Virus record (IMG/VR): IMGVR_UViG_3300022742_000086
Coordinates: 1-34,794 of that record
DNA length: 34,794 bases
DNA from: a virus
Taxonomy: Duplodnaviria > Caudoviricetes
Strand: one strand, 5' to 3'
This document shows positions 1-25,604 of the stretch, piece after piece (position 1 is the stretch's first letter; each line of letters starts with the position of its first letter). The position numbers and the translations under genes are program-made. A model generated the notes under the pieces. That model did no database searches, had not been told where the DNA came from, and worked only from the letters and a program-made list of their open reading frames with translations.

Positions 1-621
1 TTACTTCTTTTCCATCCAGGCCAGCAGAGAAGCCCATTGTTCCAAATCTTTCTTGTGCCGAGCCTTCGGGGGATCAAAGATCGTTGCGCCGGCTGCAGCA
101 ACATTTACATAGTTCTGCGTATTACGGAGATAAGCCACGATCGGCAAATCAAAATGCGTGAGGAACTCCTCAAGCATACCCGCCGCACGAGTCCGGGGAT
201 CAACCCGCATCGCAACGATACCGACCTTCGCCTTGGCCCCGCGAATCTCACTGCGTATTACATTAAGAAAGTCTTCGGTTGCGGCCATATCAAACACCGA
301 CGGCACCAGAGGCACGATGATTTTATCAACCGAGCGCATGGAGTCGCTCAGTTTGTAGCCCTGCAGCCCTGCCGGCGCATCGACAACAACCCAGTCCGCT
401 TCCTTGGGGAAATTCAGTCCGATCTGGTTTCCGGCAAAATATCCGGTCACCGGCGCCAGCGACGCATCGCGAAAAGCCATCCAGCGCAGAGCCGATTGCT
501 GCCGATCCAGATCACACAGCGTGGTCGTCAGACCCTGATTGGCGAAATAACCGGACAGGTTGGTCGCCAGCGTCGTTTTTCCCGCCCCACCCTTGGGGTT
601 TGCCACCAGTACGGACCGCAT
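1..621 (-). CDS. ParA/MinD-family ATPase (orphan ParA, host gene)
   Basis: Deviant Walker A NPKGGAGKTT, CDLDRQ, VVVDAP and PS..D motifs; 206 aa; no parB visible in the window. Confidence 0.9.
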   Translation of the reverse strand: MRSVLVANPKGGAGKTTLATNLSGYFANQGLTTTLCDLDRQQSALRWMAFRDASLAPVTGYFAGNQIGLNFPKEADWVVVDAPAGLQGYKLSDSMRSVDKIIVPLVPSVFDMAATEDFLNVIRSEIRGAKAKVGIVAMRVDPRTRAAGMLEEFLTHFDLPIVAYLRNTQNYVNVAAAGATIFDPPKARHKKDLEQWASLLAWMEKK

Positions 622-715
622 GTGTTTTCCTCCTTTGTGATCGGGAAATTATATTCGCCCCCGCAATCGGCTGATAGATGCATAAAATAGTCGTTTGCAT
701 CGCACCCGGAAAAAT

Positions 716-1543
716 ATGATCACCAAGGTTTCCAGCGACCGCCAGGGCATTCAGTCAGTCGAAATCGGCTTTCGACTGTTGCGCATTCTGGCCGCCAACA
801 ATCGGCCGATGATGCTGCGCGATATTGCAGCCGGTGCAGGCATGGCCTCGGCCAAAGCCCACCGCTACATGGTGAGTTTCATGCGCATCGGCATCGTCGA
901 GCAGGATCCGGCCACAGGCCGCTACGATCTGGGTGCCTATGCACTGGAACTCGGCCTGGCCGGACTCGGCCGACTCGACCCCGTTCGACTGGCAGGCCAG
1001 GTACTGGACAATTTATGCGAAGAAATCCACGAGACCGTGGCGCTGGCCGTCTGGGGTACGCATGGAGCGACCATCGTCCGCATTGTGGACGCAGGCGGCC
1101 CGATCACGATCACACTACGCCCCGGCACCGTTCTGTCGCTGGCCCGCTCGGCAACCGGACGAGCCTTCTCGGCTTTCTATCGATCGCCCTTCCTAAAGCA
1201 AAAGCTTGACGAGGAATTGAAGGAGATTGCCCAAGGAAAGGCCGGGATCACAACACAACGGCGACAGCTTGAGAACACGCTTGAAGAAATACGAAATCGA
1301 GGGATCGCCAGGGCAACGGGCAGTCTGACCCCCGGCATCAATGGTTTTTCCGCGCCGGTATTCGATAGCACCGGTCAGATGGTTGCGGCCATCACGTCGC
1401 TGGGCGCGACCGGAGAATTCAATGCCGACTGGGACGGGCCGGTCGCGAACGCAATGCGCATGGCAGCCGACTCATTGTCCCGCCGACTGGGCCATACGCC
1501 AGCCGGGGATTCCGCTGGTGCCCCCGCTCGGCAACGAAAGTGA
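716..1543 (+). CDS. IclR-family transcriptional regulator (host gene)
   Basis: N-terminal GIQSVEIGFRLL wHTH; C-terminal SATGRAF and GINGFSAPVFD effector-domain motifs; ATG at 716 preferred over the TTG at 695. Confidence 0.92.
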   Translation: MITKVSSDRQGIQSVEIGFRLLRILAANNRPMMLRDIAAGAGMASAKAHRYMVSFMRIGIVEQDPATGRYDLGAYALELGLAGLGRLDPVRLAGQVLDNLCEEIHETVALAVWGTHGATIVRIVDAGGPITITLRPGTVLSLARSATGRAFSAFYRSPFLKQKLDEELKEIAQGKAGITTQRRQLENTLEEIRNRGIARATGSLTPGINGFSAPVFDSTGQMVAAITSLGATGEFNADWDGPVANAMRMAADSLSRRLGHTPAGDSAGAPARQRK

Positions 1544-14243: not shown

Positions 14244-16523
14244 CTAGGCCATGTGCGGTGTTATTGCCGCAACGTAGTCGGGTACAAGCAGCGAGGTGCC
14301 GTAACTGCTCGGGTGTAAAAGATCGGTAAACAGAGATGCGTTCGAGGTATTTGCGATGTTCCCCATCACCGGATTTGCCGCCAGGTCGACGATAAAATCG
14401 GCGCCCCAGGCGGCATAATTTTCACGCACCAAGTCGTTATAGGCTTGAGCGGCCACCCACTTTGCAGAATCCAACACCCAGTTGTATCGCGGGAGGCATG
14501 TTGCTATCCCGACCCGATCAATCAGTGCTGTTTTCGCGTCGGCTATTCGCGCCTGCGCAATAGCAGCGATCGCGCTCGCCGAAGTCCCCGCAGCAATATC
14601 GTTCGCACATGCCTCAAGTATCCAGATGAGCCGTTTCTGGCTCCAACCCTTGAATGCATTGAAGTAGTTCGGTGCCGCAGGAATTGCGGCCATGGTCGCT
14701 CCGAAGACACCTGCGTTGATCAGCCTGCTCCGCTTCGGCAGCGCCGCATCCAGCTGCCGGGTCAGGTTCTGACACAGCGTCGTTCCGGTGCCTTCGAGAA
14801 TCGAGTCACCGGTCAGCCCGATCGTATTGTCGAAATCGGTCTGCACGCCAAGTGACCCCTCGAACGACATGCGCGCGGCTGCCATCGCAGCGGCTGGCAG
14901 AACGCCGGTGTAGAGGCTGATTGCCAGTGCCTCGAATTTCCCGCGACGGACGCCAGAAAGGTCGTTCGCAATCATGCCGCCGGCAGACACGCCGCTGCCG
15001 CTGATGGCAGACCGACTGAACGAACGCTCCGCGATGTAGTGCTTGACGTTCGATTCGCTCGATGTGACACCGAAAATACCCGGATTCGACGGCACATATT
15101 GAGGCGTCGTCTGAGTCGATCCGGCGACAAAACTCTGCCCGTTCAGCACCTCGAACTTGCCAATCGTTGCCGGGGTGCCGTCCTTGAGAGACACCCAGCA
15201 CGATGTGTTTTGTCCGATCGTTTGCCGGCCGAAGAACAGCATCGTCAAATTGCGGACATTTAGCGCAATAGACGACGGCAGATCAAGCTGAGCCGTTATT
15301 AGGGGCGACCCATTCGAGCCGTCGAAAATCAGCGATGGAACCCCGTTGACCGTGATGTCTGCGCGGATTTTCGGCCGGTTTGAAGCAGCCGTTGGCGTGT
15401 GCTTCGAGCCCATCTGATCATAGAGCTTTGTGACCTGCCCTGTTTCTGCGCCGAGAAATTCCGTCAACGCTGCTGTATCAAGCTTTTGTCCAGAAAATCC
15501 AATAGTGATAGATGCGCTATCGGACGGACGCACCACGTCGAAAGCGGGGCCGAAATACCCGGCCAAGGGCACAACACCGTAATAAACAGCAGGAGCCACT
15601 GGCGAACTGAAATAAAGAGCATCAGCTGGCTGCCCGAGAGGACCGGAAAGAGTCCTGATGTCGCTGATTCTCCGCGGGTAATAATCGAATTTAGAAACGT
15701 GGCATTCTGCTCCATCCGACGCCGGAAATATCCTCAACACACCGGCCCAGGTCACTGCTTTATGCCAGACGATCTGCCCGCCCTGATGACTCGTGTAAAC
15801 GCCGTTGGCGTCGTAGCTAATAGCGGTTTTTCCTGGACCGTAGGAACTCACAACCGTTGTTCCGCCGATGCTGATCAGCGCCTGGCCGGCTGGCGCGTCG
15901 TGCTCGATGACGAATGTCCCAGCGGCTCCAGAAAACCATTGCTGTGCGGTGTCGATTGTCGCTTGATCGGCGACAACGGTTATCTGAGACCCTTCGCCGG
16001 TGATCAGGGACGTGGCTTGTGTTCCAGCCTCAACCTGTAGATTCGTGACCGTTCCGGAAGGCGTCAGCACAAGCGATCCGGCCGACGTTGGAAAAGCGAA
16101 GGTTTTCCGCGCGGGCCCGAGTCCGTTGATCGTGCCAGCATAGGCGCCGCTGAGTGTGATTGATCCGTCGCCCCAGAAGCTGACAGTTAAATACCCCTGA
16201 GAAACCGCAATCGTCTCGGACGAAACAGGTGATGCTGACACGGTATTAAGGCGTGTTCTTTGTGCCGAGATCAAGAGCCCTAGTGCGGAATGCGTGGTTT
16301 GATCGTGGTCGAATCTCGGTTGATTTGCCGCGACTGACTCGACGACGCCTGCCGAATTGATGCGTGTGGCCGCTCCGGTGGCTCTCGATAGCGAAATGAT
16401 GTCGCCGAAGCCCTTAGTGGACAAGCCCATGCTGTACCTCTGCTGCAGAAAATTCAGATTAAGTGACGACTGGTCGCCGCGACGCGGCGCCAGGGCTAGC
16501 GTCAGGCCGAGCGGGATGTTCAC
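14244..16523 (-). CDS. Putative head-spike fibre with lectin-like domains and C-terminal SGNH/GDSL hydrolase
   Basis: N-terminal LGLTLAL and SLNLNF...Y, SRATGAATRINSAG, PRFDHD...GLLI fibre motifs; SGNH blocks GDS, NAGVFG, AND and DLLHP. Confidence 0.75.
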   Translation of the reverse strand: MNIPLGLTLALAPRRGDQSSLNLNFLQQRYSMGLSTKGFGDIISLSRATGAATRINSAGVVESVAANQPRFDHDQTTHSALGLLISAQRTRLNTVSASPVSSETIAVSQGYLTVSFWGDGSITLSGAYAGTINGLGPARKTFAFPTSAGSLVLTPSGTVTNLQVEAGTQATSLITGEGSQITVVADQATIDTAQQWFSGAAGTFVIEHDAPAGQALISIGGTTVVSSYGPGKTAISYDANGVYTSHQGGQIVWHKAVTWAGVLRIFPASDGAECHVSKFDYYPRRISDIRTLSGPLGQPADALYFSSPVAPAVYYGVVPLAGYFGPAFDVVRPSDSASITIGFSGQKLDTAALTEFLGAETGQVTKLYDQMGSKHTPTAASNRPKIRADITVNGVPSLIFDGSNGSPLITAQLDLPSSIALNVRNLTMLFFGRQTIGQNTSCWVSLKDGTPATIGKFEVLNGQSFVAGSTQTTPQYVPSNPGIFGVTSSESNVKHYIAERSFSRSAISGSGVSAGGMIANDLSGVRRGKFEALAISLYTGVLPAAAMAAARMSFEGSLGVQTDFDNTIGLTGDSILEGTGTTLCQNLTRQLDAALPKRSRLINAGVFGATMAAIPAAPNYFNAFKGWSQKRLIWILEACANDIAAGTSASAIAAIAQARIADAKTALIDRVGIATCLPRYNWVLDSAKWVAAQAYNDLVRENYAAWGADFIVDLAANPVMGNIANTSNASLFTDLLHPSSYGTSLLVPDYVAAITPHMA

Positions 16524-17267: not shown

Positions 17268-19397
17268 TTATTGGGTAAGCAGGTCCTTGACGACCGCGAA
17301 CGAGGCAGGGTTGCGAACATTGACATCAACATCCTGCAGCGCGATCACACGACGGCCGCCGCTGGTCGAGTTGGCGTAGGGGTCGAGCATGATGTCCAGG
17401 CCGCCCCACATCGCGATGATCATGTCGGACCAGTTCCCGAACGCGGCGGCCGAGCAGACGCCGTTCGAGGTGCCCTTGGTCAGGTTGCTCGGCACGGTGT
17501 TGGTGACAAACGCGTCATAGCCCAGGACCTCGCCCAGGCCGCGCTCGGCGCCGCTGGTCCACACGGCCTTGCCGTTGGTGCCGGTGAACTCCTGCGTCTT
17601 GCGCAGCTTGCCGCGGACCTTCGTGTTCGTGAGGTAGGCCAGGTTGCCGATATCGGCGTTAGCGTTCGAGACGGCCGTCTCGAGATCAACCATCGCGTCG
17701 TAGGTCGGCGCGCCGCCGTTGGCGCCCATGGCGACCGAGCCGAGGCCGGCCATGTTGAACAAGCCGGTCGGCATGTTGCCGGTGCCAGTGCCGTTCAGGG
17801 CGCCGTCCTGGATGCCCAGGGCCAGCTGCATCGCGAGATCCATGCGGACAAAGGCCTCGACGTCGAGCGACGACTGCAGCAGCAGGCGGCGGGTGTAGTC
17901 GGTGAAGGCGCCGATGGTTTTCGGCGTCAGCCCCACTTGACCGACGGTCTGCTGCGATTCGGTCGGCGCGTTGCCTTCGGCGATCCAGTAGGTCTGCGCG
18001 GTGCCAGTCTGCGACGGGATTGCGACGTTGCCGTTGAGGTCGCGCAGGAATGTGACGCCGAGGCGGTCGAGCACCATGGCGTTGCGCAGCAGGTCGATAA
18101 AGGCCGTGCCAAGCAGTTCGGTGGCGACCAGGTTGCCGCCGGCCGTCGGCGCGCCGACGTTGAGGTCGCGCACCATCTGCTGATACTGCAGCGAGCGGCG
18201 TTGCGCATTACCGATCAGATGGCGAGCAGCGGCAGCAGCTACCGCGTGATTGACCTGGATGCCGCGCGACAGGACATCCATCGGCAGGGTGATCGCGGCT
18301 TCGCGCTCCTTCTGCCGGATGTCGGCGCTATCGCGCTTGGCCTGCGCGGCGGCCGAGCACTCCATCTCAAACGGGGCCAGCTTGCGGGCATTGGCCGGGT
18401 CGTTCGCGGCGAGCAGCGCGCGACAGAACGAAAATTCCTGCAGGTCGCGTTCCGACATGCCGATCTCCGGCGACTCGGCGGTGCGCAGCTGACCGGCATC
18501 CTTGAGCTTGTCGAGAATCATCGTGCGGAAGGCGTCGACCGTTGTGCCGCTGTCGATATGCTGGTCGGCCAGGTCGCGCATGTTGAACTGCTGGCCGAGG
18601 GCACGGATGTCACGCGAGCGCTCGCGCTCGGCGACCAGCGGGTCCTGGCTGGTGGTACGGGTGGCGGTAGCGGTGGTGGTGGCCGCCGAGGCTTCTACGG
18701 GATCGGGCATGGTTCGTTCTCCTTGAACGGTTTGGGAAGTTTCCCCGGCGGTCGGGGCATCGAGCGAAATCACGCGGTAGCGGACTTCGGGATTCTTGGG
18801 GTCGGGCGCATCCATCGAGCGCCCGAGACCGACGGTGGCGTCGGCAGGGATATCAACCAGGCTGACTTCGTACGGCAGCCAGTTCGTTACGCGATACTCG
18901 TCGGCCTCGCCATCCTTGCCCTGGCGGACCAGGATGCGCTCGTTGATCAGGTAGCCGATCGAGACGTTACGGACAAGGCCGTCGACGATGTCCTGCCGCA
19001 GGTCGGCCAGGGCTTCGCGGCGGCTGATCGCGATGTCGATCTCCTGCTTGTCGCCGATCAGGCGGGCGGCTTCAATCGCGCCGATGCCGGCGAGCGGCGT
19101 GTTGCCGACGGCGTTCCAGCGATTGTGATTAGCCAGCAGGACACCGGCGCCGCCGTTGAAGCGTGAGAGATCGCACTCGTCAGGCTTGTGCCCCAGCACC
19201 TCGATCCACGGATCATCCCACCAGTTATCGCGCAGGTACGGGATTTCGGACGAACAGGTGATCGTCAGGCGCATCAAGCCGTCGTCTTCGCCGGTTGATC
19301 CGTCGGCGGCCGGATCGATCGAGCGCAGACGGATCGACGCCGGCATCTGGCGATGCAGGGCACCTTCGATTTTTGAGCGTTGATTGGTATTGGGCAT
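17268..19397 (-). CDS. Prohead protease-major capsid protein fusion (HK97 fold); internal capsid start at 18710
   Basis: Protease motifs LLANH, VSIGY, PYEVSLVDIPAD; capsid motifs GGNLVAT, WIAEG, AFGNWSD; AAGGAG upstream of internal ATG 18710. Confidence 0.92.
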   Translation of the reverse strand: MPNTNQRSKIEGALHRQMPASIRLRSIDPAADGSTGEDDGLMRLTITCSSEIPYLRDNWWDDPWIEVLGHKPDECDLSRFNGGAGVLLANHNRWNAVGNTPLAGIGAIEAARLIGDKQEIDIAISRREALADLRQDIVDGLVRNVSIGYLINERILVRQGKDGEADEYRVTNWLPYEVSLVDIPADATVGLGRSMDAPDPKNPEVRYRVISLDAPTAGETSQTVQGERTMPDPVEASAATTTATATRTTSQDPLVAERERSRDIRALGQQFNMRDLADQHIDSGTTVDAFRTMILDKLKDAGQLRTAESPEIGMSERDLQEFSFCRALLAANDPANARKLAPFEMECSAAAQAKRDSADIRQKEREAAITLPMDVLSRGIQVNHAVAAAAARHLIGNAQRRSLQYQQMVRDLNVGAPTAGGNLVATELLGTAFIDLLRNAMVLDRLGVTFLRDLNGNVAIPSQTGTAQTYWIAEGNAPTESQQTVGQVGLTPKTIGAFTDYTRRLLLQSSLDVEAFVRMDLAMQLALGIQDGALNGTGTGNMPTGLFNMAGLGSVAMGANGGAPTYDAMVDLETAVSNANADIGNLAYLTNTKVRGKLRKTQEFTGTNGKAVWTSGAERGLGEVLGYDAFVTNTVPSNLTKGTSNGVCSAAAFGNWSDMIIAMWGGLDIMLDPYANSTSGGRRVIALQDVDVNVRNPASFAVVKDLLTQ

Positions 19398-19449: not shown

Positions 19450-21060
19450 CTATTTCGGCGGTTTCTTGCCCGAGGTATCGGCCGCGGCATCGGCTGCAGC
19501 ATCGGCAGGATCGGGCGCCGGTGCGTTGCCGCCGGCCGGACCGAAGCGCTTTTCTTCCTCTTCGATCTCCGCAAAGACTTCGTCCGGGTCTTCGTTTCGG
19601 TCGAGCAGGATTCGGCGGCGAGAGGTAAGGCGGTTTTTGAGATCGGTGTCGTTTGCGCTGGCGGTCTTGGTCGGGTCGACATGCGACCAGCGGCGGCCGG
19701 GGAAATAGGCGGCGGCCTGGTAAGTGGCGAGCATCGCCGGGCGCAGGCCGGGCGTGGCGGCGACCAGGTAGGGCAACACGGTAGCGCGGACATCATCATG
19801 CAGCCAGCTGCGCAGGATGCCCTGCAGGCGCTTGAAATGTTCGCGCTCGCCGACAATGCCGACGTTTGCACTGGAGTAGTTCACGCCCTCCAGGTCATTA
19901 CCGATCGTCACATAGCTGATGCCGCGGGCGGCCGACCAGCCGCGCAGCTGCTGCTTGACGTAGCCGTCGGCGGAGACGTCCGGCCACTTTGATTCAAACG
20001 GCTTGAAATCGTAGCCCTGCGGCAGGGTGTCATACTGCCCGGGCATCGTGGTGCTGTACTTCTCGGCCGCGGCAGTCAGCTGCTGCACCTCTTCCGGCGT
20101 CAGCACCTTGCCCTGCGCCTTCGCCGCTTCCATCACCCCGGAGATGATCACATCGGCGAAGCCGGCCGGGGCCTCGCCGTCGACCGACGTGAAAAAGCCC
20201 TGACGCTTGGCGGCGTTGCTGCTGGCCACCGCCGCCGCCTCTTCAAAATCGTGCAGCATCCAGAGCCGGCGAGCACCGCCGGAAAGCCACGGGTAGCCGC
20301 GCAGCTGGCCGACGTGACGACGGACAAAGCGGTGCCGGATCTCGCCGGCCGGGATGCGGACATGCGGGCCGATGGCCATGGCCGTCGCATCCTCGCCGGC
20401 CTTGACGGCCTTGAGCCAGTAGGCGACCGGCCGGCCGTCGTTATCGATCTCGATTCCCATGCGGACACGGTTGCCGCCCCAGTCGCGACGCAGATTGACG
20501 TCGATCAGCGCCGGGTCGAGCAGCTGCAGCTGGATGCGATACTTGCCGGCGCCGATCCGCCAGCGATACAGCAGTTCGCCGTCCTCCGGGCCGGCAGCCA
20601 GGGCCAGGGATTCGACCTCCCGAAAACTGAGGCCGGTGATTTCGCAATCCGCCCCCCAGTCGGAAAAGGCCGATTCGAGGCGATCATTGTTGACCTTGTC
20701 TGCCGTGCCGTCCGTCTGCTTGAGCCGCATCTGCAGCGGCATGCCGTGCTCGCCGAGTACATTGTCGTCGAGCCGCAGCATGTAGCCGATCGCCCACTCG
20801 TCGTTGCGAGCGGCGGCCCGGGCGCGGGCGCGCAGGGTCGGCAGCTGGCGGGCGAGGTCATCATTGATCGGGCCGGCGGTGGTCGGCCAGCTATCGACCC
20901 AAGCCGGCGTCTCGGCGGCGGCGAAACTGCGCTGTGCCTGGCGCAGGCCGATCAGCTGCTGATGCTGGACGGCGGCCGCGGCATCGCGCAGGGCGCCGGA
21001 CATCCAGGCCGCACGGTCGGCGGCGGATTCGCGACGGCGGAAGAGATCGCGTAGGCCCAT
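19450..21060 (-). CDS. Portal protein, lambda family
   Basis: LRARAR..ARND, GRPVAYW, GQLRGYP, D...VNYSS and VDP.K motifs. Confidence 0.93.
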   Translation of the reverse strand: MGLRDLFRRRESAADRAAWMSGALRDAAAAVQHQQLIGLRQAQRSFAAAETPAWVDSWPTTAGPINDDLARQLPTLRARARAAARNDEWAIGYMLRLDDNVLGEHGMPLQMRLKQTDGTADKVNNDRLESAFSDWGADCEITGLSFREVESLALAAGPEDGELLYRWRIGAGKYRIQLQLLDPALIDVNLRRDWGGNRVRMGIEIDNDGRPVAYWLKAVKAGEDATAMAIGPHVRIPAGEIRHRFVRRHVGQLRGYPWLSGGARRLWMLHDFEEAAAVASSNAAKRQGFFTSVDGEAPAGFADVIISGVMEAAKAQGKVLTPEEVQQLTAAAEKYSTTMPGQYDTLPQGYDFKPFESKWPDVSADGYVKQQLRGWSAARGISYVTIGNDLEGVNYSSANVGIVGEREHFKRLQGILRSWLHDDVRATVLPYLVAATPGLRPAMLATYQAAAYFPGRRWSHVDPTKTASANDTDLKNRLTSRRRILLDRNEDPDEVFAEIEEEEKRFGPAGGNAPAPDPADAAADAAADTSGKKPPK

Positions 21061-21062
21061 AG

Positions 21063-21608
21063 TCAGCCCCGGTAATAGACGCGGCCGGGCGTGCTGCCGC
21101 CGGAGATCAACGCCATGGCGGCGTTCTCGCGGGCGACCAGCGGCCGGTAGTGATTGATCAACTCGACGATCTGCGCCGCGTCGCGGAATTTGAGCTTGCG
21201 GCCGGCGATCTCGTATTCGGCGACCATGCCCTTGCCGCCGGCCAGGTAAGCCGCAAGCGCCGCCTCGGCAGCATCCAGCGCGCGCCGATTAAGGCTCCGG
21301 CCATCGTGCTGCGCGGCCGACGTCAGATCCGGCAGGATTGTGACCGGGTTGCTCGATAGGGTTTTTTTCGCGCCGGAGTGCTCGACCCAGCGGACCAGCG
21401 TCGCCGGGCCTGCTGCCCAGGTGGCGGTATCCGCCGACGACAGGGTAACGGTGTAGCCGTCACCGGACGGCGCCCCGTTGAATTGCGCATTGCCGGTCGA
21501 CCAGAGCAACCGGAAGTGCAGGGACCAGCCATCGGCCGGCAGGTAGTCGGGCAGCGACTCAGACCAGGTGATCGAGTCGCCAGCGCGGAAGGTGTCGGGA
21601 GTATCCAT
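21063..21608 (-). CDS. Head-tail adaptor (gpW-like C-terminus)
   Basis: EYEIAGRKLK motif; immediately upstream of the portal. Confidence 0.75.
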   Translation of the reverse strand: MDTPDTFRAGDSITWSESLPDYLPADGWSLHFRLLWSTGNAQFNGAPSGDGYTVTLSSADTATWAAGPATLVRWVEHSGAKKTLSSNPVTILPDLTSAAQHDGRSLNRRALDAAEAALAAYLAGGKGMVAEYEIAGRKLKFRDAAQIVELINHYRPLVARENAAMALISGGSTPGRVYYRG

Positions 21609-21660
21609 GCGCGCAGTGTCTGCGCGGATGGGGGGACAAAAATAGGCAAAAAAGGTCCGC
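21609..21660 (-). promoter_or_regulatory. Putative late promoter 1: 27-bp box, 13 nt, GACACT, 6 nt, ATG
   Basis: Box 21634-21660. Confidence 0.7.
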
Positions 21661-21675
21661 GGATGGATCGGGCGA

Positions 21676-21960
21676 TCAGGGCGGGCAGAGCATCGCCGCG
21701 AGGCGGTCTAGCTGATCGTCGCCGCTGGGCGGCACGCCGCCGCACTGGCGGATGGCATGCGCGACACACGTGCGCAGCATCCAGTCCTGGACGGGCTGAG
21801 GAATTGGGCGTTCTGCTCGACGCCACTTGCTGAGGTAGTTGGTCGTGTATCGCGCGCCGAGGTCGGCATTGATCGACTCAATAATTGCCGTGGCCGCAGT
21901 GCGGTCAGTGTGGCCGAGCTGCTTGATGGCGTCGACGGTGGATTTGACGAGGTCATACAT
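21676..21960 (-). CDS. Small HTH-like protein, last gene of the accessory operon (Aca-like candidate)
   Basis: 94 aa from MYDLVK; NYLSKWRRAERPIPQPV resembles an XRE recognition helix followed by a W..G.R.IP-type motif. Confidence 0.6.
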   Translation of the reverse strand: MYDLVKSTVDAIKQLGHTDRTAATAIIESINADLGARYTTNYLSKWRRAERPIPQPVQDWMLRTCVAHAIRQCGGVPPSGDDQLDRLAAMLCPP

Positions 21961-22459
21961 GGTCCGCATCCCCGAGTGCCGGGTTGCGCGTGACCCATGC
22001 CCAGGCGATACAACGCTCCAGATCACCGAGCCACTGCAGTGCGTCCAGGTAGCCTACGATGGTGTCGTGTATAGCTACCGCGACCCATGGCGCGGCCGGC
22101 GCAGTAATGCCTGGCTTGCTGCCAAAATTGGCCTGCAGGCTAGCCCAGAGGTCGACCGACTCTCGCGAGCGCTGGGCAATCCCGAGAGTTGCCAGCGGTA
22201 ACCATTCGCCGCTATGCGGCCGACCCGGCGTGTGCGGGCCGCGGGGCCCATAAATCGTAACGACGAGACCAATGTCTTTGACCACACGGGCGCCGAAGTG
22301 AGATAGCGGCGCCACGGGCAACGGTTCAATTTTGCCGCTGGATCGCGCCTGGTTGAGCCAGGGCACAAGGACGGCAAGCGTCTCATCATGGACCTCAGAC
22401 CGCGGAGAGCGACGGCAATCGCCGGTGCCGAGAGTGATGTGGTTGATGTAGTTAGACAT
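21953..22459 (-). CDS. Hypothetical protein (accessory operon gene 3)
   Basis: 168 aa; overlaps both neighbours by 8 nt. Confidence 0.7.
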   Translation of the reverse strand: MSNYINHITLGTGDCRRSPRSEVHDETLAVLVPWLNQARSSGKIEPLPVAPLSHFGARVVKDIGLVVTIYGPRGPHTPGRPHSGEWLPLATLGIAQRSRESVDLWASLQANFGSKPGITAPAAPWVAVAIHDTIVGYLDALQWLGDLERCIAWAWVTRNPALGDADHV

Positions 22460-22670
22460 TTAAGGTACGTGTCTTGACGTCGCCGTGAGAATTCCAGGCC
22501 TGGAAGAGACGGCCATCCGAAAGGTCGACAGAGGCAGCTGTTTCATTTCGGTAGCCGCTTTGGACAAAATCCTTGATTTCGCTCATGGCCTGCTGATCGG
22601 TTTTAGCCTTAAGCGTGAGGGTGCCGCCGACGTTATTTTCGCCATGCGAATAGGTTGCCGTATAGCTCAT
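22452..22670 (-). CDS. Hypothetical protein (accessory operon gene 2)
   Basis: 72 aa; SD AAGGGG. Confidence 0.75.
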   Translation of the reverse strand: MSYTATYSHGENNVGGTLTLKAKTDQQAMSEIKDFVQSGYRNETAASVDLSDGRLFQAWNSHGDVKTRTLNV

Positions 22671-22715
22671 GTTTTTCCCCTTCAGATTGGCCCGGAGATA
22701 TCCGGGCCTTGACTG

Positions 22716-23015
22716 TTAAGCAAGCTGCGCCTTTGCGTGGGCGATACTATCTTCGATGATTTTCCGGCCGAAAGGATCTGTGACCTTTTCCAGGCGGGCC
22801 AGGTCTTTTTCGAGGTTTGCGCGAAGAGCGCTTTCGCGAATGTTGTTGCCGCGCATGTCCTTGAGCAGACGGTCAGATTTTTGCTGTTCGGCGGCCGCGA
22901 TTTTCTCAGCTGGCTTTTCTTCAGCGGAAATCCACTTTTTATGCGGGTTGTACCCTTCGCCACCTTCGTTGAAAAAGTCGTTGTACTTTTTCCATTCCGG
23001 GTTGAGCTTGAACAT
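22716..23015 (-). CDS. Hypothetical protein (accessory operon gene 1)
   Basis: 99 aa from MFKLNPEW, SD CAGGAG; YN...NEGGEGYNP motif, highly charged. Confidence 0.75.
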   Translation of the reverse strand: MFKLNPEWKKYNDFFNEGGEGYNPHKKWISAEEKPAEKIAAAEQQKSDRLLKDMRGNNIRESALRANLEKDLARLEKVTDPFGRKIIEDSIAHAKAQLA

Positions 23016-23072
23016 TTTTTTCTCCTGCCTACTACCGGAGGCGTCGGGGATCAGCGCTATTGCTGAATCCAT

Positions 23073-23106
23073 GGCTCTATTATAGGTCAATTTTGACCCA
23101 TTGCAA
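23073..23106 (-). promoter_or_regulatory. Sigma70 promoter TTGCAA-16-TATAAT with palindromic operator in the spacer
   Basis: -35 at 23101-23106, -10 at 23079-23084, inverted repeat GGTCAA-N2-TTGACC at 23085-23098. Confidence 0.8.
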
Positions 23107-23125: not shown

Positions 23126-23377
23126 TCAGAGCAGTTTTTTCAGGCGCCGGACATGGCGGATGCTGACCCCGAGCTTTTCTGACAGCGCCGCCGTATCCTG
23201 GTCGGCGCAGGCTTCAAGCGCCGCCAGAATGGACCCTTTTTTTTGTGCTGCGATGTACGGGCGGGAGGCCCCGAAGTGCGTGCGGATGCTACGCTCAAGC
23301 GCAGACCAGGCGTGCGGCGGGATGTCTGGGCAATCCCGCTTGGCTTGCTCCAAGATATCGCGCAGGTCGTCAGCCAC
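23126..23377 (-). CDS. Mor/C-like transcriptional activator
   Basis: HFGASRPYI (compare the FGG...YIP pattern of Mor/C) and C-terminal HTH LSEKLGVSIRHVRRL; overlaps the terL stop. Confidence 0.65.
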   Translation of the reverse strand: MADDLRDILEQAKRDCPDIPPHAWSALERSIRTHFGASRPYIAAQKKGSILAALEACADQDTAALSEKLGVSIRHVRRLKKLL

Positions 23378-25604
23378 GGCGACCTCCTCGGCGGTTGCGC
23401 ATCATCGCTTCCCAGGCCTGCTTATACCCGGCGGAAGTCATCAGGTCGGTCACAGTTGGCGCAGCTTCTGACGAGCTTTCCGGCGACGCGGCCGCCGGCG
23501 CCACAGGTGCAGACGCCTGTACTGGCGCCGCCGGGGTTTCCGCTGGTTCGGTTTTTTGCGATTCCGGCTGGTCGACCGTGGTCGGCAGCAGCACGCCCTG
23601 GCGCAGCCGGATCTCGTCCAGGTCCCATTGACCCGGCCGGCGCAGGTGCAGCTTGAGGTGCCGGCACAGGTAGACGGCGTAGACCGTGCAGTCCAGCCCC
23701 TCGTTGCGGCGGTCGGTGCGCGCCTTCCAGCGCCGGCGCTTGGGGTTGAGCCGGTCGGGAATCTTGATCTCGCTCAGCAGCTGCTCGAAGAAGTCGTCGC
23801 GAACGCCCTCATACCAGTGCATCCGGCCGGCGCCGCTGCCCTCGAGGCGAACCCGGCCGCCCTCGGTCGCCCAGCCGAGGATCAGATCCTTGGCCTTCGC
23901 GGTGCCGACGATATGCACCTGGACGCCGGCCTTGCTCGCCTTGGTCGCCTTGCGGTTCGGATCGATGGCCTTCGGCGGCGTCCAGATTTCGACCCGGCCG
24001 ACGTCGTCGGGCGCGCCCTTGAGCGCGAGCACCGGGCGGTTGACGCCGCGGTCATGCCGGCGGACGAAGGCGTAAGAGGCCTCGCTGGTCTGGCCGTCGG
24101 AACAGTCAATGCCGCTGGCGGCGATGCGCAGCGGCACGCCGGCGGCGGTGTTGATCGTCTGGTTATCCAGGATCTGCTGCAGCTCGACCCAGGCGCCGGC
24201 GTGCGGCACGATGGTCTGGCCGAAGACCTCGCCCCAGTACGCGAGCCACATTTCCTCGCCGCGGCCGACGACCCAGCAGGTCAGCGCCAGGCGGTCGTGC
24301 TGCACGTCGACGGTAAGCAGCGGGATCAGGGCGCCGGCCGGCACGCTCCATTCGGCGTAGCGCTCGGCGCGCTTGCGCAGCTCGTCCTCCTCCGGCAGCT
24401 CGCCGGAGTATTCCCAGCAGCGGCCGCGCGTCGAGTTCTCGAACGTGACCATCTCGGTCGCGTCGCCCTGCTCGAGCAGGTTGAGCGCGCGCAGGTATTT
24501 CTCGGCGAGCATCGGCACACGCGAGCCGTCGAAAACGCTCTGCAGCTCGTTGCAGTAAAAGCCGGGGTCCGGCGCGTCGGCGGTCGGTTCCCAGCCGTAG
24601 AGCGGCGGCACCGACGCGGCCTTGCGGATGTTCGCGATACGCTGGTCGTCGGTCCAGATGCTGCCGCAGTGCGGGCAGCTGTAGTAGGCGTCCTCGTGCC
24701 GGGCGCGGCCGTAGACCTCGCGCGACGGGTAGCGCTGATCGATGTCCGGCGCCGCCAGTTCCTCCGGCGTGAGGTTTAGGCCAGGGATTGTGACGTGCGC
24801 CCACTCGACTTCGTGGCGCTCGCCGCAGTCGTGGCAGGCGGCCATGAAGCGGCGCTGGTCGGTCGTCCGCATCTCCTGCTCGATCTCGGATGCGCCCTTC
24901 GCCGTCGGCGATCCGCCGATCAGTTCGAAGTTGTTGCGGATACTCTTGCCGCGCTCGCGCAGCATCGCGATCGACTTGCCCTGCCCCTTGACATCCTTGT
25001 TCGTATCGTCCGGCTCTTCGACGATGCGGATCTTCGCCGAGGTCGACTTGACGTCACTCGGCGAGTTCGACGCGACGAGCTTGATCAGCCCGCCCGGGTA
25101 GTGCTTGCGCGTCTGGCTGTTGCCGTCGCTGCGGCTCTTGAGCTTGATGCGCTTGGCCAGCACGGGCGTCGCACGCACCATCGGCGCGAACTTCTCGGCG
25201 TCGAAATCCTTGGCAGACTTTTCACGCGGGAACATGACGACCTGCACGCAGGGTTCCCAATGTACGTGGTAACCAAGGACGTTGCAGACGATGCCGGCGG
25301 TGTAGCCCAGCTGGGCAGACTTCTGGACAACGACGCGCCGGTTGATCGTCGGATCGCACGCCGCAAGGATGCCGCGCAGCGCCGGCGTATTCTCCAGCGA
25401 GTAGGGGCCGGCGAAGTCGTTGGCCTCCTCGCGGCTGAGCGTCCGGTACGTCTCCGCCCACTCGATCGGCGACAACGGCGGCGGCGGCTGCAGCTCGGCA
25501 AAGCACCGCTTGAGCATCGCATTCAGCGCCGTCGACGCCCAGCCGTCCAGGGCAGCGATGTCGTACGCGTCGAGGGTTTTATAGGAGACGGGTGGGGCGT
25601 TCAT
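23370..25604 (-). CDS. Terminase large subunit, lambda gpA family
   Basis: QKSAQLGYT Walker A, GSPT, CHDCG/CPHCG, TVDVQ and RNEGLDC motifs. Confidence 0.95.
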   Translation of the reverse strand: MNAPPVSYKTLDAYDIAALDGWASTALNAMLKRCFAELQPPPPLSPIEWAETYRTLSREEANDFAGPYSLENTPALRGILAACDPTINRRVVVQKSAQLGYTAGIVCNVLGYHVHWEPCVQVVMFPREKSAKDFDAEKFAPMVRATPVLAKRIKLKSRSDGNSQTRKHYPGGLIKLVASNSPSDVKSTSAKIRIVEEPDDTNKDVKGQGKSIAMLRERGKSIRNNFELIGGSPTAKGASEIEQEMRTTDQRRFMAACHDCGERHEVEWAHVTIPGLNLTPEELAAPDIDQRYPSREVYGRARHEDAYYSCPHCGSIWTDDQRIANIRKAASVPPLYGWEPTADAPDPGFYCNELQSVFDGSRVPMLAEKYLRALNLLEQGDATEMVTFENSTRGRCWEYSGELPEEDELRKRAERYAEWSVPAGALIPLLTVDVQHDRLALTCWVVGRGEEMWLAYWGEVFGQTIVPHAGAWVELQQILDNQTINTAAGVPLRIAASGIDCSDGQTSEASYAFVRRHDRGVNRPVLALKGAPDDVGRVEIWTPPKAIDPNRKATKASKAGVQVHIVGTAKAKDLILGWATEGGRVRLEGSGAGRMHWYEGVRDDFFEQLLSEIKIPDRLNPKRRRWKARTDRRNEGLDCTVYAVYLCRHLKLHLRRPGQWDLDEIRLRQGVLLPTTVDQPESQKTEPAETPAAPVQASAPVAPAAASPESSSEAAPTVTDLMTSAGYKQAWEAMMRNRRGGRRG

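Follow-up and report, generated by a model that had tools for sequence, protein, structure and literature searches.

A probable new family of Aca-type repressors, its operator decoded, closes a candidate counter-defence operon among phage head genes

Introduction

The architecture of acr-aca operons is well known. In those under Aca1, Aca2, Aca7, Aca10 and Aca11, a strong core promoter with an inverted repeat between its -35 and -10 boxes precedes small, variable genes, and the operon ends in a gene for a small helix-turn-helix (HTH) protein. As a rule, Aca operons have an inverted repeat inside their core promoter (PMC9410906, PMC12658196), and for most Acas the same repressor site is reported also to lie in front of neighbouring operons (PMC13551039). 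Aca1 of Pseudomonas phage JBD30 has an IR2 element containing TAGGCAC-AAT-GTGCCTA (PMC8633003) and also binds a hairpin that starts just after the transcription start (PMC13551039). Aca7, from the Halomonas acrIF11-aca7 operon (PDB 9lx1), binds a 19-bp inverted repeat overlapping the -35 and -10 boxes (PMC12658196).

Here we analyse a four-gene insert (g1 to g4) in a 34,794-base window, by which we mean the whole stretch of DNA studied, a complete virus record with genes for tail, capsid, portal and terminase proteins, a primase-helicase, a CII-like protein and a repressor. The insert shares with the acr-aca operons named above a strong core promoter with its repeat between -35 and -10, small variable genes and a terminal small HTH gene, and AcrIF9 occurs among the cargo of g4 relatives. 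It differs from them in that g4 has two additional C-terminal helices (residues 55-91) outside the aligned HTH core, that the g4 profile matches no Aca in the PDB, and that the cargo of the window matches no known Acr in PDB searches. We conclude that the insert is probably an acr-aca-type counter-defence operon, expressed early and regulating itself, in which g4 would represent a new Aca-type repressor family and g1 to g3 would be candidate anti-defence cargo.

Results

All features of the insert and of its flanks are on the minus strand. The insert lies between a small HTH-like gene (23126..23377) and a head-tail joining gene (21063..21608; phrog_5774, E 1.6e-30). The former sits behind the terminase large subunit gene (23370-25604, GpA domains), and the latter is followed by portal (19450-21060) and capsid (17268-19397) genes, both assigned by Pfam. 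A preliminary description of this DNA had called the upstream gene Mor-like; it is a small HTH-like gene, but the name draws on Pfam HTH matches that are weak (E 0.026). The anatomy given there for the insert itself was recovered when all positions were re-derived: a promoter with a palindrome in its spacer, then g1 (23015-22716, 99 aa, its ATG behind AGGAG), g2 (22670-22452, 72 aa), g3 (22459-21953, 168 aa) and g4 (21960-21676, 94 aa), whose start overlaps the g3 stop. GC content is 51% in g1 and g2, 62.5% in g3 and 64.6% in g4, and 65-68% in the terminase, portal and capsid genes. In a scan of the minus strand, the stretch from g4 to the head-tail gene showed nothing resembling a terminator. 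A candidate element near 21642 has a single occurrence in the window, and a search for relatives of the head-tail gene that might display an empty insertion site found none. Three public DNA runs tile the region, with no listed variants; one public RNA run contributes a lone 159-nt piece at 22620-22778 and does not amount to evidence that the genes are expressed.

A 427,324-base metagenome contig (L103) encodes g4 at 100% identity together with the same four genes, and the window is therefore inferred to come from a prophage. Those relatives of g4 and g3 that carry names belong to Azonexus and Accumulibacter. None of the window genes that were scanned was recognised as an integrase gene. At the left end of the window (1-1543) are a ParA-like gene and a gene for an IclR-family regulator, which may be host genes flanking the prophage, and between the head and tail genes a 759-aa gene with a GDSL-like esterase domain (14244-16523) has a GC content below that of its neighbours.

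The predicted sigma-70-type promoter, TTGCAA-16-TATAAT (23079..23106), agrees with the consensus at 10 of 12 positions, with -35 TTGCAA at 23106-23101, a 16-nt spacer, -10 TATAAT at 23084-23079 and the start region AGAGCCATGG next. The spacer holds the perfect palindrome GGTCAA-AA-TTGACC (23098-23085), which extends with 7 of 9 pairs to the 18-bp TGGGTCAAAATTGACCTA (23100-23083). This operator-like palindrome, TGGGTCAA-AA-TTGACCTA (23083..23100), fills the spacer, touches the -10 box and is the sole such site in the window when up to 4 mismatches are allowed. Promoter and palindrome each barely beat chance when taken alone: 4 kb contain 2 promoter-like sites where shuffles give 0.8±0.8, and perfect palindromes of the same shape (arms of at least 6, 2-nt loop) number 17 in the window. 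Their significance comes from conservation in relatives, which keep the promoter as TTTACA/TTGACG/TTGCAA-16-TATAATAGAGYCATGGA with the start region conserved, and in which the operator consensus of the g4 family reads TAGGxCAA-NN-TTGxCCTA.

Fifty g4 loci were fetched (10 viral, 2 genome and 38 metagenome), among them the window's own sequence (L103) and near-copies. A palindromic promoter was scored where TATAAT follows a spacer in which 7 or more of the 9 pairs are palindromic and lies no further from the g4 start than 1.6 kb on the upstream or 450 bp on the downstream side. By this rule one stands beside 28 of these 50, compared with 2 of 360 background TATAAT sites taken from other loci after removal of palindrome-scan finds and of duplicates of g4 contigs; many of the g4 loci are near-copies, and the counts overstate their independence. 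The link between the g4 family and a palindromic promoter is thereby borne out. The promoter is upstream only in 16 of the 28, downstream only in 10 and on both sides in 2, which resembles the placing of repressor sites before neighbouring operons in acr-aca systems, and g4 is the last gene behind an operator-promoter in 18 of the 50. Most of the 22 loci without a promoter by this rule are short contigs, while L004, L008, L009, L010 and L102 have long flanks; L101 has a diverged palindrome with a different -10, found by eye. As a separate observation, comparison with L007 suggests that L008 and L125 have lost the promoter together with the 5' part of the first cargo gene, the remainder being fused to an upstream gene, so that g4 is left as the end gene of another operon.

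A scan for the promoter core TATAATAGAGYCATGGA that was blind to g4 returned 32 loci; the 6 with a palindrome (5 contigs) all encode g4, which is found in none of the 26 palindrome-less loci, two of which have fewer than 100 bases downstream. The reverse scan, for the palindrome plus TATAAT, returned 11 contigs, 5 with g4 and 6 without, and the palindrome alone is therefore not exclusive to g4. In one of these phages without g4 (L149:3000-4175), a near-identical palindromic promoter with a good -35 heads a small operon that ends in a different XRE-like gene, as judged by eye. Such cases would be expected if a host regulator or another phage regulator bound the palindrome and g4 were a passenger; most of the six g4-less contigs, however, lack a good -35 and the conserved start region, and the operator base pair tracks the g4 helix in 27 of 27 classified loci, which leaves the passenger reading scarcely credible.

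That tracking concerns the variable pair x of the consensus (pair 5/14), in 29 loci where both helix and operator could be read. A helix with R-x-G-Q before the conserved W-R-R goes with C·G in 16 of 16 loci, and one with D-L-G-K with G·C in 11 of 11. The window's Y-L-S-K helix goes with T·A, while the Y-L-S-K helix of L101 goes with G·C in an otherwise diverged site, two proteins of one helix type thus differing in operator. Changes at the pair, among T·A, G·C and C·G, are two-sided, and the g4 residues that change with it, 42 and 45, fall in the predicted helix 40-47. On a tree of the 26 distinct g4 proteins, computed with the helix columns kept in the alignment and with most rows kin, the C·G label needs two changes, forced by the branches starred on that tree, and the second origin of the pairing is one long-branch row (L003). 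This covariation is the best evidence that the g4 protein itself would read the palindrome, through which it very likely represses; given the two-fold symmetry of the operator, it would do so as a dimer.

The protein encoded by g4 (21676..21960) is predicted to be an XRE/Cro-type HTH protein with the recognition helix at T40-R47 (TNYLSKWR), and it has 47 homologues at 54-100% identity. The HTH nature of the terminal gene, proposed earlier from inspection of the sequence, holds as a prediction: the AlphaFold model (pLDDT 92.1) has five helices, and the top rows of a VIA fold search are mostly XRE/Cro-type HTHs. The same fold search places Aca7 first (Z 6.8, rmsd 2.4 over 60 residues), a score that unrelated HTHs equal and that is often reached by proteins with no real kinship, followed by HigA2 (6.0), MqsA (5.7), Aca10 (5.6) and Aca1 (5.2). 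It supports an XRE/Cro-type HTH fold and not kinship with one particular Aca. A Foldseek search gave nothing at E<=0.001, and the Pfam, PHROG and NCBIfam libraries gave no sequence family. Searched against PDB sequences at E<=10, the g4 profile returned one unrelated match and no Aca, and a single-sequence search likewise; by this measure, Aca1, Aca2, Aca7, Aca10 and Aca11 have no detectable sequence homology to g4. A g4 motif is absent from the supplement texts of AcaFinder (PMC9765179) and PMC13551039, neither of which need contain sequences, and a search of 400 further genomes from the family of the Azonexus MAG gave no g4.

Between promoter and g1 lies a leader of 57 bases (23016..23072) with two predicted hairpins (-16.7 kcal/mol, z only -1.7), the second of which abuts the Shine-Dalgarno sequence AGGAG. 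Hairpin 1 begins at the predicted transcription start, the place where Aca1 binds its hairpin, and recurs behind most g4-type promoters; in an alignment of 19 rows, with shorter variants not gap-aligned, 68% of the cells are paired but two-sided changes are seen at only 2 of the 7 pairs, which amounts to weak covariation. Aca1 and Aca2 bind leader hairpins of such a kind (PMC13551039), and by analogy it is possible, and weakly indicated, that g4 binds leader RNA. Rfam gave no meaningful match to the leader. Hairpin 2 with AGGAG stands before the first cargo gene of about 20 loci, irrespective of which regulator they carry: besides the window (23016-23047), it was seen in L002, L003, L017-L020, L055-L057, L062, L064, L065, L068, L073, L074, L083, L101 and L187, which include a Xanthomonas plasmid.

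Behind the g4-type operators stand 29 first genes that fall into 17 single-linkage families. The site of the insert itself shows such turnover: in an Azonexus prophage (L101) with the same insertion site, a similar upstream gene and a nearly identical leader, g3 and g4 are kept and g1 and g2 are swapped for other genes. L002 has another cassette between terminase and portal genes. The cargo is thus highly variable; invariance had been named beforehand as an outcome that would count against an anti-defence operon.

Homologues of g4 also neighbour a known acr gene. In L139 the order is operator-promoter, AcrIF9 homologue (PDB match, E 2.3e-12), an 82-aa gene and g4, and in L122 and L126 close relatives of this AcrIF9 homologue stand behind an operator just downstream of g4; these are the 3 of 29 first genes that match a known Acr, all of one family. 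A weaker link is seen in L138, where an AcrIF23 homologue (E 3e-69) comes directly after g4, behind a different promoter and followed by a 217-aa gene of its own. This separate cassette (L138:175-1428) has its own palindromic promoter, and the 217-aa gene, which no library names, has an HTH-like C-terminus and is possibly another unnamed Aca. Among 44 cargo proteins picked from g4 loci, two Acr homologues included, there was no Pfam match and no named PHROG. Pfam, PHROGs and NCBIfam failed on the AcrIF9 and AcrIF23 positive controls, and their blanks therefore carry little weight.

In PDB searches none of g1 to g3 matches a known Acr, in agreement with the preliminary description. The first of them, g1, has 16 homologues and consists of an invariant N-terminal NPxW...NEGGEGYNPH motif on a variable helical tail, without a significant Pfam, NCBIfam or PDB match and without a named family in PHROGs. 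In 44 viral loci the motif is found again, joined to unrelated protein bodies and often in a gene that comes first behind a promoter, and no AcrIF9-like or AcrIF23-like gene was found in these 44. In L011-L054 the position of the NEGGEGYNP segment may be initial, central or terminal, and the phage proteins that bear it are unrelated and range from 70 to more than 800 residues. Neither Pfam, PHROGs, NCBIfam nor the PDB gave a family for g2. One homologue lies directly behind a g1 relative in L017 (E 6e-17), and another (38%, E 5e-6) comes second in the group of genes that ends Dickeya phage Sucellus, ahead of an adenosine phosphosulfate reductase gene. A likeness of g2 to AcrIF9 seen by eye gained no support from a profile comparison (hhalign probability 0.3%, from shallow alignments of 3 and 5 rows), and nine g2 'relatives' from a viral scan were dropped as matches inside larger unrelated proteins.

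With 119 homologues, g3 is the best-supported anti-defence candidate among the cargo genes, on the grounds of its genomic company. Its AlphaFold model is alpha/beta (pLDDT 94.5) and has no clear match among solved folds (best VIA Z 4.1, many GNAT rows at noise level); BFVD gave one uncharacterised viral match (E 1.3e-7) and PHROGs one match of unknown function (E 1.3e-5), and an Atlas search gave no usable lead for g3 or g2. Neither g1, g3 nor g4 was found among GenBank phages. Relatives of g3 share an apparent operon with an AcrIF9 homologue in L079 (E 5.7e-28) and its near-copy L080, and with an AcrIF23 homologue in L060 (E 8.8e-40) and its near-copy L061, that is in 4 of 37 viral loci, two near-identical pairs, with regulators other than g4. 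The earlier proposal that all three cargo genes encode new inhibitors may hold; it gains from these PDB-matched neighbours in the case of g3, whereas g1 and g2 are linked to it through architecture alone. In L079 (4593-5450), and likewise in L080, g3 is fused behind a domain of about 140 residues; on a Polaromonas plasmid (L188:2396-3447) a domain that looks similar by eye is a separate gene before g3, with an AcrIF23-like gene, also judged by eye, next. Further terminal HTH or RHH regulators end g3-containing operons in L057, L062, L063, L064 (after g3) and L079-L089, and the RHH regulators among them may be related to Aca14.

The overlap of g3 and g4 also calls to mind a type II toxin-antitoxin or addiction pair, with g4 as a HigA- or MqsA-like antitoxin repressing its own operon. 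HigA2 and MqsA score as well as the Acas in the g4 fold search, and among nine genes picked from the 37 g3 loci for lying directly after g3, eight have an HTH- or RHH-type match (E<=0.001). Such a pair would, however, be expected to stay together, whereas g3 was detected in 2 of the 50 g4 loci and its relatives precede unrelated HTH and RHH families, or none; g3 also lacks a clear toxin-fold match. We consider an addiction module very improbable.

Discussion

Taken by the features that define the class, g4 encodes a predicted HTH protein and closes an operon of small genes carried by a mobile element, with an inverted repeat in the core promoter and with homologues that share an operon with an acr homologue. 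The naming of an Aca calls for linkage to at least two unrelated known acr families. Under g4-type operators one known family was found, AcrIF23 being adjacent in L138 behind another promoter, in a comparison in which PDB Acrs alone are recognisable. We regard g4, from the sequence patterns described above, as likely to be a new Aca-type autorepressor family with a decoded operator. A literature search by the g1, g3 and g4 motifs, by operator-plus-TATAAT strings and by topic, with most subscription papers outside its scope, found no description of the family; HMM sets or figure-only supplements could list g4.

The commonest g4-type operators resemble Aca1 IR2 in their TAGG ends and in a core of GCA...TGC or CCA...TGG. 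They differ from it in being 18 bp with a 2-nt centre instead of 17 bp with a 3-nt centre, and the fold match of g4 to Aca1 (Z 5.2) comes with 11% identity. Aca7, although the best fold match, is 12% identical to g4, has an unrelated AT-rich operator and leads HTHs that are not Acas by less than 1 Z unit, which makes it a tie. AcrIF9 and AcrIF23 homologues, while absent from the window, fill cargo slots of g4-linked and g3-containing operons elsewhere.

A model for the operon follows. Phage DNA would enter a cell free of g4, where host sigma-70 polymerase would fire the near-consensus promoter, and the resulting burst of g1 to g3 would blunt host immunity. As g4 accumulates it would dimerise, bind the 18-bp palindrome between -35 and -10 and block polymerase, and its repression would also stop read-through into the co-directional head-tail, portal and capsid genes. 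Since no terminator-like site was found between g4 and the head-tail gene, repression would shield the late genes from early read-through, a role that repression is reported to play in work on Aca1. For at least one cargo protein, g3 first, the best guess at a target is a type I CRISPR-Cas system and most probably I-F, since AcrIF proteins are the sole neighbours that could be recognised and since 21 of 201 genomes in the family of the Azonexus MAG have Csy3; no Csy3 match was found in the Azonexus MAG itself.

That at least one cargo protein inhibits a host defence seems to us probable; that at least one is an anti-CRISPR is quite conceivable, though somewhat short of probable. The cargo might instead serve host take-over or competition between phages, including superinfection exclusion or modulation of replication or metabolism, with g4 still an Aca-like autorepressor. 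At least 14 of the 17 first-gene families have no known function, g1 to g3 match no Acr in the PDB, and of the genes that stand under Aca1 and Aca2 motifs less than half have been given a function (PMC13551039). Yet the only functionally named cargo under the operator or beside g3 relatives is anti-CRISPR, and none of g1 to g3, as read from their sequences, resembles a membrane protein. A cargo directed elsewhere than at immunity is on this evidence unlikely, and a counter-defence operon is the reading we retain.

A more far-reaching version would have g4 as a new Aca family with a helix-to-operator code that also binds 5' hairpin RNA, g3 as an anti-CRISPR or anti-defence protein of a new fold and the g1 NEGGEGYNP segment as a portable inhibitor motif, whose presence on many unrelated early phage proteins would point to one conserved host immunity target. 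That all of this should be true together strikes us as rather doubtful.

Each new Aca family is a bait for finding inhibitors, and an operator that can be written down is in addition a search handle at the level of DNA. The g4-type operator has already led to 17 cargo families, nearly all without a known function, in phages whose relatives, where they carry names, are betaproteobacterial (Azonexus, Accumulibacter). Hairpin 2 before AGGAG could serve as a regulator-independent handle for candidate anti-defence operons, and the natural variants of helix and operator are ready-made material for swapping specificity. Among the cargo, g3 is a strong candidate for testing because it is well predicted, has no clear fold match and shares operons with AcrIF9 and AcrIF23 homologues.
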